This document shows, piece after piece, positions 30,801 to 36,800 of a stretch of 64,000 nucleotides of DNA (the stretch's first letter is position 1; the number at the start of each line of letters is the position of its first letter). The DNA lies in assembly GCF_050920415.1 (NCBI RefSeq), contig NZ_CP169309.1, one strand, 5' to 3'. Made by a program: the position numbers. The stretch comes from Escherichia coli. Lineage in GTDB: Bacteria > Pseudomonadota > Gammaproteobacteria > Enterobacterales > Enterobacteriaceae.

Positions 30801-33800
30801 GGAAGACAACCGCGTCTACAAATGTACACTGTGCGTTGACCGCGTGGTGGTTGGGCAAGAACCGGCCTGCGTGAAGACCTGCCCAACGGGCGCGATTCAC
30901 TTCGGTACGAAAGAGTCGATGAAAACGCTGGCGAGCGAGCGCGTGGCGGAGCTGAAAACCCGTGGTTACGACAATGCGGGTCTGTACGATCCGGCAGGCG
31001 TGGGTGGTACACACGTTATGTACGTGCTGCACCATGCTGACAAGCCGAATCTGTATCATGGCTTGCCGGAGAACCCGGAAATCAGCGAAACCGTGAAATT
31101 CTGGAAAGGCATCTGGAAACCGCTCGCAGCTGTTGGCTTTGCGGCTACCTTCGCAGCCAGTATCTTCCACTACGTGGGTGTCGGTCCGAACCGTGCGGAT
31201 GAGGAAGAGAATAATCTGCACGAAGAGAAAGACGAGGAGCGCAAATGAAACGACGTGACACCATCGTGCGCTACACCGCGCCGGAACGTATCAACCACTG
31301 GATCACCGCCTTCTGCTTCATCCTGGCGGCGGTGAGCGGGCTGGGCTTTTTGTTCCCGTCCTTCAACTGGTTGATGCAAATCATGGGCACACCGCAGCTG
31401 GCGCGAATTCTGCACCCGTTTGTCGGCGTGGTTATGTTTGCCTCGTTCATCATCATGTTTTTCCGTTACTGGCATCACAACCTAATCAATCGGGATGATA
31501 TCTTTTGGGCGAAGAATATTCGTAAGATCGTCGTCAACGAGGAAGTAGGTGACACCGGGCGTTATAACTTCGGTCAGAAATGCGTTTTCTGGGCGGCGAT
31601 TATTTTCCTGGTCCTGCTGCTGGTGAGCGGTGTGATTATCTGGCGTCCTTATTTTGCGCCTGCTTTCTCAATCCCGGTGATCCGATTCGCGTTAATGCTG
31701 CATTCATTTGCCGCAGTGGCGTTAATTGTGGTTATCATGGTGCATATCTACGCCGCCCTTTGGGTGAAAGGCACGATTACCGCCATGGTGGAAGGATGGG
31801 TTACCAGCGCATGGGCGAAGAAACATCACCCACGCTGGTACCGTGAGGTCCGCAAGACAACGGAAAAGAAAGCTGAATGAGTATTCGCATAATCCCGCAA
31901 GATGAGCTGGGTTCGAGCGAGAAACGTACGGCGGATATGATTCCGCCGTTATTGTTCCCTCGGCTCAAAAATTTATACAACCGCCGCGCTGAACGTCTGC
32001 GCGAGCTGGCAGAAAATAATCCGCTGGGTGATTACCTGCGTTTTGCTGCGCTTATCGCCCACGCCCAGGAAGTGGTGCTGTACGACCATCCGCTGGAGAT
32101 GGATCTGACCGCGCGCATTAAAGAAGCCAGCGCACAAGGCAAGCCACCGCTGGATATTCACGTTTTGCCGCGTGATAAGCACTGGCAAAAGCTGCTGATG
32201 GCAATGATTGCTGAGCTGAAACCTGAAATGAGCGGCCCGGCGCTGGCAGTGATTGAGAATCTGGAGAAGGCATCAAGCCAGGAGCTGGAAGATATGGCCA
32301 GCGCACTGTTTGCCTCTGATTTCTCGTCCGTCAGCAGCGATAAAGCGCCGTTTATCTGGGCTGCACTGTCGCTCTACTGGGCGCAGATGGCCAATCTGAT
32401 CCCTGGCAAAGCCCGCGCTGAATACGGCGAACAACGTCAATATTGCCCGGTTTGTGGTTCTATGCCGGTGTCCAGCATGGTGCAAATTGGCACTACTCAG
32501 GGTCTGCGTTACCTGCACTGCAACCTGTGTGAAACTGAATGGCACGTAGTGCGCGTAAAATGCAGCAACTGTGAACAGAGCGGCAAACTGCATTACTGGT
32601 CGCTGGATGACGAACAGGCCGCGATTAAAGCCGAAAGCTGCGATGACTGTGGCACTTACCTTAAGATTCTTTATCAGGAAAAAGAACCGAAAGTTGAAGC
32701 CGTGGCAGATGACCTCGCCTCTCTGGTACTGGATGCGCGAATGGAGCAAGAAGGCTACGCCCGCAGTTCCATTAACCCGTTCCTGTTTCCGGGTGAAGGG
32801 GAGTAATCTCTGACGTTTTCCGGGTGGCGCTGGTCGCCCGGATTACAGTTCATAGGGTATGACGACACCATCTCTCGTATTCCGCGTTACCCATTCAAGA
32901 CTATGCTGTTAGTGCCTGTTTGGCCTCATTCTTCCCGCCAACACATCGATAAGGTTATTGGTATGTCACTGATGACAAGCGTAAGATTGCCTGATGCGCT
33001 GCGCTTATCAGGCCTACCAATAAACTGCAATATGTTGAATTTGCACGACTTTGTAGGCAGGATAAGGCGTTCACGCCGCATCCGGCATGAACAACTCGCA
33101 CGTTGTCAGCAATCTGATTGATATCATTTTTTCCCATTACCATTCCTCGCGCAGCTTACGCTGGTATTCGACACCATCTTCCTCACATCCTTGCCAGATG
33201 CCAAAAGCACTGGTTCTTGCTGTTTGCGATTGATTTACCTGGTATTGATCTACCGCTTCCCGTAATAGCTCCGCACGAGGAAGATTACACTGCACCTCAA
33301 GATCATCAAGTTGCTTAATCACCTCATTCGATAAATCGAGTAAAATTCTGCCCATATCCATACCTGCCAGAGAGTTCATAAATATCTCGCCAATATCATT
33401 TTGAATCTATGGAGAGAAAAGTACCTTTGTCGAATGCTTAAAGAAAGTGCATTTACGTATCACTTTTATTTTTGCGAGGCGTTTTCCAGATATGATGTAA
33501 CAGTTGCAGTTATTATAAGTTCAAGTAAAACAACCTTGTATTAATACCAGAATAAGGGCATCTGGTTTTTATATTCAAGAATAAAAAATTTTTTGTCATT
33601 CCTTATGCTCCTTACACTGATCATCGACCCCCACTGTCTCCCCCTTTTGCCTGCCTCCCTTTGCTTTACGCACCGGGAATTGCTGACGTTCCAGATATTG
33701 CTCTACCGCTTCGCGTAAAATTGCAGATCGTGAAACCTTACGCCAGCCCCTAAGCTTGTTCAGCCGTTTAATTGCCTCTTCTGATAAATGAAGAAAAACC

Positions 33801-36800
33801 GTATTCATCGTCATTGCCACCACCTAACATATATTACTCATTAATGTATGTGCGAAAATTACGCCGAAAAATCATTTAAAAAAAGCGGATTTTTGCATGC
33901 TGTTTTGTTTTTGCGAGACGTTTTCCAGAAATAATAAGAACGTTGCAGTTGTTTCATTTGTTAATCAAAAATGGTTTGGTTATCGCCCAGGATGAGATAT
34001 GGGTGCTATAAATATATTATATTCAGGGATATTTATTTTTTGATTGGGTCTTCATTTGCATAATCTGAATGGTGTACCCGAAAAACGTCAGCATCCTAAC
34101 AGCACCAGGATTTAAGGTGAAATTTAACATCCATCACAGACCGGTCAATGCTGCCACCAACCGGTCTTTACTTGCTCGTCGTTATAATTTTGTGGGTAAC
34201 AGTTCGGGAAACAAGGAATTCCTTCCGGAACACCCCGGTATCATCCGATAGCATTGACGTCAATCATCAGCGCGACGGTGAGTTTTTTTAATCGAATCAT
34301 AGGATGGTAACGTTAAGCACGATTACGGGTCATAGTAAAACTCCTGAGCTGGCGGCACTATGCCGCTTTCACAGGAGTTCTGAATGCTGGTGCTTTCTGT
34401 ATGGCATAACCATGCCCCTCGCGGCTAAGTGCCTGCACACTTCTCTCTTTGTATGTCATTTTTGCAATGCATTGGCCGAATTCTGGTAATTCAAATGAGT
34501 TTTACTCTTCAGACTCCCATCCCTACGGTATACGAGTTAGATTCATGAATGAAATCGACATTTTTAAAAAACGAATCTTGTAAAACATCCGTGTTGATAT
34601 TACCTTGCAAACCAACATTGAATTTGTTAGAGACATGAAGAATTCGAATATCAAACAGGTCTTTTAACATCATTAATTCTTCAGCTGTTAATGACTCGCA
34701 ACTAAAATATCCCTGTTGATCAAAAAGGTTTTCAATTTCTCCACCATAGGCGAGGCGTTTTTCAATGAGTGTTTGCAACATCGAGTTGCCAAGGACAATG
34801 GATATCGTGCGATCTTTCGCAGATTTACACCCCATCACAACGGCAACATTCGTATCCCTCTCAGGAATTTCATTTATCGCCGTCGCTAAAATGGTGGTCA
34901 AACACGCAAACGGAACTGTATTTCTTTCGTGATTTAATTTATCTACCAGTTCATTCCATTTATCAAAAATCGGGCGATATTTGTTGCGCGCAGAAATATC
35001 CAACTGGTTAAACAATTCAGCCATGCGTTTTTTTATCATCTCGATATCCGGCGAGTCAGAAATACTTTTCGCATAATACGGGCCTGATGATGTTGCATAC
35101 ATTAAAGCAGCGCCCACACCTGTCACCATGATAGGTGCAACCACGGTTTTGGCAAAGGCGACGCTGCGATGGCTATGCGCTTCACAGTCTAAAGGAATAT
35201 ATTCCACTGGCTGCGGTAAATCCTGGCATGCCTCCCTCATCATTGCGGTATGTTTTACAAACAACGGTTTTTCATTGCCAAAAAAAACTTTCTGCTTAAT
35301 TGCACTAAGAAAACGCAAATCAAAAATGATTGTTTTTGGTTTATTATTTTTGGGCACATTTCCTATTATCCCGCTAAGAACCTTCCTTGCTGCATGGAGA
35401 TTTTTTTGCACAGCACATAACACAATTGACGAAGCCTTCTCTACTTCGTTATTGATTTTAATTTTAAAATCTGCATGATATACGTTGACGGGCAATGTAA
35501 GTATATCTGGACTTACATCTTTGGCTGAGTATTTATTGGTGATCGACGGTCGTGAATCCACGAGAAAACTTAGCTGCAAATTATGCTCTATATTACCAGC
35601 TGTTTTTGTAGTGTGATTAAACATAGAGATGCCACCTCTCATTCTTTCACACATATCCTCAACTTTTTCACTTCGTTCTTGAGGCAATTTGGCTTTAACG
35701 TTAATTTGATGATTTTTACCCGTGCATTCCTTAACTACAAGGGGAACGTTATCTAAAGCGCCATATAGGTTAATAACGTCACCAGGCTTTTTATCATGTA
35801 AGTAAGTTTGATTAATACTCGAGGCATTCACAAAGAGGTCAATATTATAACTGTTTATAACTTCACCTACATCAAATGTGTAGTGCTTACTCTGGAGGCT
35901 GCCATCCTTATTTAATTGTATATCAATCAATATATCCCCTGACTTTGTCACCATATCTTTGCCATAAACCATTTGCATAGCCATTTCGAGGAGGTTTTTA
36001 TCTAACTGATTGCGGGCGTTGAGTAAGCGACTACCAAATAATTTATATACTGTTCCCGTCATTGCCAGCGCTGCGCTTTCTGTTACTTTGCGTTTCCACA
36101 GTGAGGTTTCTCTATTTTTGAACAGGCCATATTCATTATTACTCGACAACCCGAGTTTCAGTTCGTTAACACAATCGCACAGTTGCTCCTCACCTTCCAT
36201 TTTAAGGCAAAGTGAAAAATGATTTAATAGCGTTTGCTTCGGTGATTCATTACTCGTTAGTTGTTTTTCTAAATTAACAATAGAATAACCTTCTTGTTTA
36301 ATGAGATTAATATTGGCAACCATTACAGCCTCCTTCCCACGGTTTAAGAGCAAACATGCAACATAATTATTTATAACATCCAGAGCAGTAAATGAATGAT
36401 ACTGACAATGATACCAGTCCATTATCTTTGCATAATGTTTGTTAGCTATAGATTTTAAAAATATTTATGAGAAAAGTATGGTACCAGAGGGGGTTTTGGC
36501 TATCAAAAATCGCTCAAACCTGAAGTAAGATGATGAATTAAGCATTATCGGCGATAATTGCCACTCACCTCTACAAATAATATTTAAATGCTCCTGAACA
36601 GTGATGTAGCAAGACACGTATGGTGCCTACGAAGAACAAAAATTTATAGCGTTCTTATTCAATATAACCGGAATAGTCAGGGGCTGATGTAAATGACCTG
36701 AATGAGTGAGAGAGGCTACACCGCCCCTCTCCATCAGCTACTCTTCTTCGTTCCCGCCCTCTTCATACGGGCCAAATGGCTTCGCGGGCAGAACGATATA

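Follow-up and report, generated by a model that had tools for sequence, protein, structure and literature searches.

A 64,000-nt stretch of Escherichia coli contig NZ_CP169309.1 (assembly GCF_050920415.1), here termed the window, encodes two small ribbon-helix-helix (RHH) proteins, YiiF and YiiE, whose genes are each preceded by a copy of the same non-coding block. Comparative analysis identified yiiF as an orphaned vapB, i.e. the antitoxin gene of a vapBC toxin-antitoxin (TA) module that has lost its toxin gene, and yiiE as its tandem paralogue. On this evidence, the blocks are paralogues that go back to a single ancient cis-regulatory element. The repeat is under selection and its origin is settled as the duplicated upstream region of the orphaned vapB; its precise function is one that we infer from conservation and position. 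The reading favoured here, to which we assign an evenly balanced probability, is that the 22-nt core of the block represents an upstream promoter element acting independently of the toxin.

yiiF as an orphaned vapB and yiiE as its older paralogue

The window displays the gene order fdoG-H-I, fdhE (+), yiiF (−), yiiE (−), a variable segment, fabY/yiiD and dtd. Its region 32800-34500 is 100% identical to that of E. coli strain MFDS1022581, with most other genomes displaying 90-95% identity there. The two genes and the toxin gene remnants are located as follows:

33137-33379 (−): yiiF, encoding an 80-aa RHH protein (RefSeq call), the orphaned VapB, with its C-terminal toxin-binding tail kept (ORF list and RefSeq)
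33596-33814 (−): yiiE, encoding a 72-aa RHH paralogue without the VapC-binding tail (ORF list and RefSeq)
32828-32964 (−): vapC (PIN) relics, the 5′ one at 32911-32964 and the 3′ one at 32828-32898, with ~225 nt lost between them (from blastn and tblastn comparison with the PIN gene of Escherichia sp. E4694)

A YiiF-homologue profile search over one-genome-per-species bacterial assemblies yielded 38 loci, comprising 35 non-Escherichia and three Escherichia-like loci, the latter considered below with assembly contamination. Nearly all of the 35 non-Escherichia loci share a single layout, consisting of fabY, usually a divergent esterase gene, vapB, an overlapping PIN gene (~126 aa) and convergent fdhE. 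The PIN gene was found next to vapB in more than 30 species, and yiiF is the syntenic orthologue of this vapB. The Klebsiella pneumoniae pair at the syntenic site is 100% identical to the VapB-VapC chains of structures 7BY2/7BY3 (VapB being 7BY2 chain A), and the same VapB aligns end to end with the nuclear magnetic resonance entry of YiiF, 2K5J (E 2e-29); the window YiiF exhibited 65% identity to the K. pneumoniae locus (tblastn). These comparisons show yiiF to be vapB, the antitoxin gene of a vapBC module that lies on the chromosome between fabY (yiiD) and fdhE in ~35 Enterobacteriaceae.

They likewise show that the E. coli PIN toxin gene was destroyed in place. Escherichia sp. E4694 carries the order fabY-yiiE-yiiF-PIN-fdhE with an intact PIN gene, of which nt 26-80 match window positions 32911-32964 and the last ~70 nt plus spacer match 32760-32898, both at 84% nt identity; at the protein level, identity was 60% over residues 100-124 (tblastn). 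The yiiF stop codon is separated from the vapC relic by an insert of ~170 nt (32965-33136) containing a repetitive extragenic palindromic (REP) sequence. Beside yiiF, the window holds no adjacent co-oriented intact PIN toxin gene, only these relics, and it therefore harbours an orphaned antitoxin rather than a complete vapBC module.

The YiiF product would comprise 72 aa if begun at the internal Met codon at 33355. In a Pfam scan it gave a weak match to RHH_3 (E 0.059), and many of its homologues in other genera carry a precomputed RHH_1 (PF01402) annotation. The C-terminal toxin-binding tail is invariant, or nearly so, across YiiF and the VapB orthologues; despite the loss of vapC, both the YiiF reading frame and this tail are intact in essentially all E. 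coli, and YiiF has been retained together with its block in more than 5400 genomes. YiiE lacks the tail. Aligned coding sequences of YiiE and YiiF exhibited 39% aa, 56% nt and 42% third-position identity (38-39% protein identity in pairwise alignment). The comparisons show yiiE to be the older tandem paralogue, derived from duplication of a ~440-bp unit comprising the upstream region and vapB, with subsequent loss of the toxin-binding tail. As E4694 holds yiiE beside an intact yiiF-PIN pair, this duplication is older than the loss of the toxin.

In E. coli K-12, yiiE and yiiF are uncharacterised genes, to which the pairing of an orphaned VapB with an older paralogue gives an evolutionary identity. 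No paper on the regulation or binding targets of either was found in the literature searched. YiiF is listed among uncharacterised regulators, with nothing further reported. Expression of yiiE is increased 2.5-fold under SlyA overproduction, the gene is also marked as H-NS-bound, and YiiE is placed beside SlyA in the transcription-factor column of one table. An RpoS genomic SELEX (gSELEX) peak falls in the yiiD-yiiE spacer, at an estimated distance of more than 600 bp from the block preceding yiiE.

The repeated block and its 22-nt core

The two co-oriented direct-repeat blocks are located at 33464-33514 and 33903-33953, with starts 439 nt apart, and display 80% identity over 51 nt. They sit 85-137 nt upstream of the yiiF and yiiE start codons. 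Their constituent features, and those marking the extent of the duplicated unit, are:

33469-33490 (−): block 1 core, TCTGGAAAACGCCTCGCAAAAA on the gene strand, upstream of yiiF (within 33464-33511 as delimited in an earlier note on this DNA)
33908-33929 (−): block 2 core, TCTGGAAAACGTCTCGCAAAAA on the gene strand, upstream of yiiE (within 33904-33951 as delimited in that note)
33503-33511 and 33942-33950 (−): second motif, AACTGCAAC on the gene strand, upstream of yiiF and yiiE, respectively
34017-34041 (−): distal edge of the duplicated unit, a weak repeat beginning TTATATTCAGGGATA and paired with 33569-33593 (family D4, 76% identity, 448-nt spacing)
33535-33550 (−): LexA-box remnant of the yiiF unit, CTGGTATTAATACAAG compared with ancestral CTGTATGGATATACAG, as aligned with other genera

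The core pattern TTTTTGCGAG[G/A]CGTTTTCCAGA, which on the gene strand reads TCTGGAAA(A/G)NNNCTCGCAAAA(A/G) in E. coli, occurs exactly twice in the window at ≤3 mismatches, with zero occurrences expected (100 shuffles). The 22-nt cores of blocks 1 and 2 are identical at 21 of 22 positions, which makes the blocks outliers of conservation against paralogues retaining 39% aa and 42% third-position identity. Within the duplicated non-coding DNA, it is this 22-bp core that has stayed nearly identical, along with the Escherichia-specific motif AACTGCAAC (given as GTTGCAGTT at 33503-33511 and 33942-33950). The latter is identical in both units and in K-12, strain C6, E. fergusonii and E4694, and is without clear counterpart in other genera; the spacing between this motif region and the core is ~11 nt shorter in Escherichia than in other genera. 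Beyond the blocks, the two upstream regions are near background similarity except for the weak repeat at 33569-33593 and 34017-34041, which indicates that the whole ~440-bp unit was duplicated. The core contains direct repeats (GGAAAG and GCAAAAG) in phase, 11-12 bp apart, and no dyad symmetry. Its centre is G+C-rich and an A-tract directly follows it downstream.

The earlier note had described yiiF and yiiE as RHH paralogues, each preceded at about 90-155 bp by a near-identical block, and had proposed that gene and upstream region were duplicated together. All of this was borne out, including the position and orientation of the blocks, the distance, in line with the one measured here, and duplication as a single unit. 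Its interpretation held for paralogy, duplication and the presence of a cis-acting element, and found little or no support for an autoregulatory operator and for a relationship with the neighbouring island, both discussed below; the identity of yiiF as an orphaned vapB had been missed.

That note had also allowed that the similarity might reflect a REP-type repeat found widely in the genome. When 91 nt around block 1 was used as a query against 5426 complete E. coli genomes, 5413 genomes were matched with a median of two and a maximum of four copies, and all copies examined were at this locus; a third copy adjoins the esterase gene, in a region present in 2637 of the 5426 genomes. A dispersed repeat of the REP or bacterial interspersed mosaic element (BIME) type is ruled out by these two to four locus-bound copies per genome. 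REP sequence is present separately between fdhE and yiiF (~32960-33090), with a match to Rfam ES036/CssrF at 33010-33052 and a sub-threshold match to naRNA4 at 33056-33092. In a metagenome scan for the core pattern, every contig with fabY, fdhE or vapB markers represented the same locus, as did all enterobacterial matches; 95 of 120 matches fell inside long open frames and were mostly due to chance.

Across genera, the gene-strand core reads TCTGGAAAG-NNN-CTCGCAAAA(G/A). It was found upstream of vapB in Citrobacter, Salmonella diarizonae, Klebsiella, Kluyvera, Enterobacter, Trabulsiella, Lelliottia and others, at ~110 nt from vapB in nearly all vapBC-bearing genera. In ~30 of the 35 non-Escherichia species it occupies a fixed position, −141 to −143 nt from the codons for RILLDLS, and it is diverged or shifted in the most distant of them. 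In a core-anchored alignment, information content was high over exactly the 22 core positions, of which positions 9-11 are variable, and low in the flanks.

These data bear on whether the core has any present function. Tandem units could exchange sequence, and the core might thus be a by-product of recent duplication or gene conversion; the whole upstream region is well conserved within Escherichia, so that selection on the core alone is not resolvable at that depth. We nevertheless regard this explanation, together with that of an RNA-level element in a long leader, as unlikely. The paralogues are old by their aa and third-position identities, yet their cores agree at 21 of 22 positions, and the core forms an information peak in ~30 of 35 other species in which the flanks have been randomised. 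Moreover, the two copies in E. fergusonii differ from each other, which argues against ongoing homogenisation. A structured RNA leader was rejected, as RNAalifold returned 0 conserved pairs from block to start codon across 18 leaders, and so was a known RNA family, as no Rfam match was obtained on the blocks at E ≤1, the nearest matches lying on the REP region (33010-33092).

In the ancestral arrangement, the intergenic region from esterase to vapB consists of the esterase start codon, a LexA box (e.g. CTGTATGGATATACAG), TATAAC, ~50 nt and the core, followed by ~46 nt, a TAnnTT hexamer and a palindrome, TGATATAC-TGGAG-GTATATA, spanning the Shine-Dalgarno (SD) sequence and start codon. The LexA box, located 14-20 nt upstream of the divergent esterase gene (hormone-sensitive-lipase family), is intact at most non-Escherichia loci (including L017 and L007, both at 3819-3834), at L003 (4921) and beside the esterase gene of E. 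coli strain C6, which suggests that the esterase gene beside the vapBC promoter region is SOS-regulated. The window strain has neither this esterase gene nor its LexA box, and its yiiE/yiiF region contains no intact CTGT-N8-ACAG box, only degenerate relics.

The core is not confined to vapB. It also precedes a higB-like/nadS pair in E. coli C6 (the third copy, beside the esterase gene), Klebsiella spallanzanii and Pseudocitrobacter, and mazEF in Buttiauxella massiliensis. The esterase-higB-like-nadS segment is collinear between genera but only 70-73% identical, compared with 82-88% for the flanking core genes, indicating that the arrangement is old. In K. spallanzanii, a perfect 28-bp duplication with sharp edges, TTATGGAAAGCGGCTCGCAAAAGTGAAA (locus L028, 2410-2440 and 3883-3913), flanks a 1.45-kb insert encoding a higB-like toxin, a nadS-like helix-turn-helix (HTH) protein and two small open reading frames (ORFs), and vapC is truncated or fused there.

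Promoter geometry and candidate roles of the core

Downstream of each block, the following promoter-proximal features were recognised:

33418-33423 (−): candidate −10 of yiiF, TACTTT, with a predicted start at ~33411 and the block centre at ~−69
33856-33861 (−): candidate −10 of yiiE, TAATTT, in the same alignment columns as the yiiF hexamer, with a predicted start at ~33849
33380-33398 (−): decayed proximal palindrome, TGATATTGGCGAGATATTT (ancestrally TGATATAC-TGGAG-GTATATA, around the SD sequence and start codon)

Positions T1, A2 and T6 of the TAnnTT hexamer are invariant in 18 of 18 aligned leaders, 46-48 nt downstream of the block, and the region upstream of it is T-rich and offers a poor −35. 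A register scan of 43 distinct block copies at legal spacing detected no consistent −35/−10 pair anchored on the block on either strand. A sigma-70 core promoter anchored on the block was rejected in the absence of a legal register, and a reverse-strand CAGAAT is not kept in the E. coli copies.

The proximal palindrome and the core were found to have different histories. Every lineage with vapC, Escherichia E4694 among them, has the palindrome intact. It is degraded in four lineages devoid of an intact vapC (E. coli, E. fergusonii, K. spallanzanii and Citrobacter Res13), whereas their cores show 0-1 mismatches. Conversely, the most distant vapBC loci keep the palindrome and not the core, and the palindrome spans the wider species range. 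Since it tracks the presence of vapC and is conserved more widely, the palindrome TGATATAC-N5-GTATATA around the ribosome-binding site is likelier than the block to represent the toxin-linked autoregulatory operator. The persistence of the block where the palindrome has decayed is the basis for reading it as a generic upstream promoter element, and its presence before higB-like/nadS and mazEF cassettes argues for a generic rather than an antitoxin-specific role.

According to the favoured model, the core would be an upstream promoter element centred ~70 bp before the predicted transcription start, acting with a TAnnTT −10 and a poor, T-rich −35. A DNA-binding protein or the alpha subunit of RNA polymerase would bind the core and thereby set transcription of the small cassette downstream, a role presumed to be independent of the toxin, and the toxin-linked operator would be the palindrome at the ribosome-binding site, decayed in E. 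coli. Such an arrangement resembles UP elements and class I activator sites (of the CRP type, near −61 or −71) in its predicted position at ~−70, its downstream A-tract, weak −35 and fixed −10 spacing. It differs from an UP element in that the core centre is G+C-rich; the start site is a predicted one, and no known factor consensus was recognised.

Several observations weigh against this model. The core fades in Cedecea, Kosakonia, one Buttiauxella and RIT693, and as it is largely lost in Kosakonia and RIT693 while the module persists, it is not indispensable. The literature searched yielded no transcription start, chromatin immunoprecipitation (ChIP) or footprint data on yiiE/yiiF, and the −10, the start and the placement near −70 are accordingly predicted. 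No motif of a known factor was recognised in the core; comparison by eye with the motifs of CRP, IHF, PurR, MetJ, Cra, CpxR, IclR, NagC and SlyA and with the mar-box yielded nothing convincing. Furthermore, every block-bearing genome also encodes YiiF/VapB, partly as a consequence of how loci were sampled; binding by this RHH protein is therefore possible, and retention of the block beside other cassettes could reflect cross-regulation by VapB.

The principal alternative, which we hold to be possible though clearly less probable, is that the core is an operator for the RHH proteins, with YiiF/VapB, and perhaps YiiE, auto- and cross-regulating all cassettes of the locus that have a block in front. 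Repression of the own promoter is the general rule among type II antitoxins, and the RILLDLS β-strand is invariant wherever the core is conserved. The 11-12-bp spacing of the GGAAAG and GCAAAAG direct repeats would be usable by cooperative RHH dimers, YiiF is intact alongside the block after toxin loss in the genomes noted above, and both copies within a species share species-specific variants (TATGG in Klebsiella, CGCAGAA in Pseudocitrobacter). However, the core lacks dyad symmetry and is ~110 nt distant from the start codon, with the sole conserved −10-like hexamer ~45 nt downstream of it. It also precedes cassettes with their own HTH (NadS) or AbrB-type (MazE) antitoxins, and distant genera keep both protein and proximal palindrome while the core fades. 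In addition, the β-strand residues expected from the RHH fold to face DNA are R-L-D in YiiF and T-F-H in YiiE, differing at all three positions although the cores are 21/22 identical; on this basis the two proteins probably read different DNA. The proposal that each block is the autoregulatory operator of the protein encoded behind it thus finds little or no support, and the palindrome is the better candidate.

A related view, to which we accord slightly less weight, combines regulation with cassette history: the core may be the shared control site of an ancient array of TA-type cassettes beside a LexA-regulated esterase gene, with one RHH protein of the locus (YiiF/VapB, possibly YiiE) binding all copies. 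Orphan antitoxins would then have been kept as cassette regulators, and recombination between cores could shuffle or delete cassettes.

That the core is primarily a recombination or cassette-exchange site, i.e. a crossover point for insertion and excision of TA cassettes beside a LexA-controlled gene, appears improbable. The 1.45-kb insert of K. spallanzanii, flanked by its perfect, sharp-edged duplication of the core, would fit such a site, as would the block-cassette-block arrays of E. coli, Pseudocitrobacter and Buttiauxella and the variable gene content of the yiiE-fabY interval among E. coli. Against it, no recombinase gene was present among the ORFs listed around the arrays examined, the inverted-repeat architecture typical of att/attC is missing, and the collinear inserted segment, at 70-73% identity across genera, points to old vertical inheritance with losses. 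The Escherichia duplication takes in the LexA-box relic and the D4 repeat, far past the core, the E. coli breakpoints (34211 and 34440) are not at the block, and the metagenome scan found the element nowhere else. Integron-type cassette arrays offer a partial parallel, in that a LexA box lies beside repeat-cassette units carrying TA genes. Here, unlike in integrons, the LexA-controlled gene encodes a hormone-sensitive-lipase-family esterase instead of an integrase, the 22-28-bp repeat has no attC-like inverted repeats, and the array seems to have been inherited vertically.

The core pattern TGGAAA(G)-N4-TCGCA also recalls a sigma-54 promoter, with the GG-N10-GC spacing of −24/−12 promoters (consensus TGGCACG-N4-TTGCW) and its variable bases coinciding with the four spacer bases; a few bona fide sites read TGGAAC...TCGCA (e.g. 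IS32 in the relA region). This reading was rejected and is, in our estimation, highly improbable. Using a position weight matrix (PWM) built from 135 published ChIP-seq sites, the cores scored 2.7-7.3 bits, whereas real sites score at least 6.7 bits, with 10.3 bits as their 5th percentile, and 93-261 equally good 17-mers occur in the window by chance. The −12 C is not conserved, being replaced in TCGAA and TCGTA variants of Buttiauxella, Kosakonia and Citrobacter koseri, and yiiE/yiiF are absent from the K-12 ChIP-seq lists (including those of low stringency) and from the RpoN gSELEX list.

Two other sigma-54-like 17-mers in the window were recorded. The top PWM match, CTGGCGCGAATTCTGCA (31398-31414, +; 17.7 bits), lies inside fdoI and is identical to the published intragenic K-12 sigma-54 site IS47. 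The second, TCGGCGTAATTTTCGCA (33851-33867, −), scored 12.7 bits, a value in the span covered by real sites; it overlaps the candidate −10, at 37-53 nt ahead of the yiiE start codon, has lost its GC in E4694 and is absent from published K-12 sigma-54 ChIP-seq lists.

Compared with characterised modules, the window shares with K. pneumoniae VapBC (7BY2/7BY3) the site (fabY-esterase-vapB-vapC-fdhE there), the upstream core and the proximal palindrome, and differs from it in having toxin relics, a duplicated antitoxin gene (yiiE and yiiF), no esterase gene or LexA box and a decayed palindrome. In FitAB and similar autoregulated RHH-PIN modules, an inverted repeat that overlaps the promoter is the binding site of the antitoxin-toxin complex. 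The locus described here resembles these modules in encoding the RHH antitoxin first and in its short promoter-proximal palindrome; the block, by contrast, is asymmetric, is located ~90 nt further upstream than the palindrome and is shared with cassettes of other antitoxin families. As with other orphan antitoxins retained after toxin loss, the yiiF frame and toxin-binding tail were kept while vapC is gone, yet yiiF additionally has a tandem paralogue and a conserved upstream element.

The comparison therefore separates two candidate control sites, the conserved 22-bp core and the toxin-linked palindrome, which provide precise targets for footprinting and reporter assays, and lineages with and without the toxin show which promoter parts of a TA module depend on it. 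Current views are not overturned: the core adds a further instance to a familiar class of element, and the locus is a tidy case of regulatory DNA outliving its module.

The segment beyond yiiE and observations on individual loci

The block had further been suspected of a link to the integration of an island thought to start immediately beyond the yiiE copy. The island does not directly abut yiiE: sequence shared with K-12-type genomes runs to 34211, and nadS-type genomes match as far as 34440, which includes 24 nt of the 3′ end of nadS. Shared E. coli sequence thus continues 260-490 bp past the block, and window-specific island DNA is reached ~490 bp beyond it. Neither breakpoint (34211 or 34440) is at the block, and no block-like sequence flanks the island; the nearest candidate, 34459-34480, differs at 7 of 22 positions, which is at chance level (15 such matches in the window). 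A link between block and integration is consequently unsupported.

Of the 5426 E. coli genomes, 1061 carry the window-type segment (34441-36737) in full. K-12 retains its last ~480 bp (36259-36737), where the annotation gives a partial hypothetical protein; as only this end has been kept, the alignment suggests that K-12 is a deletion derivative of the window-type arrangement. The segment contains one long reading frame:

34509-36422 (−): island ORF of 637 aa, with a CX5R-like string, CKSAKDRT, in its translation

The product gave no Pfam, NCBIfam or PDB sequence match. Its designation as phosphatase-like was unconfirmed, the CX5R-like string being the sole point in its favour. Identical DNA in MFDS1022581 is annotated by RefSeq as a 'transposase' plus a pseudogene, which looks inconsistent.

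A mobile, plasmid-borne module carrying the block was considered and rejected, as the close plasmid matches were mislabelled chromosomes or one very large replicon; distant plasmid vapBC homologues occur in Burkholderia and Rhizobium. Contigs labelled Bacillus coahuilensis m4-4, uncultured Robinsoniella sp. and Chryseobacterium sp. 18061 (L004, L005 and L026) carry yiiE/yiiF or vapBC loci of the E. coli or Citrobacter type, which most likely represent assembly contamination. Finally, one E. fergusonii genome (L042, 2018-2755) contains a gene of 245 aa on the opposite strand between yiiE and yiiF, which is not present in a second genome of this species (L043) and may represent an insertion sequence.

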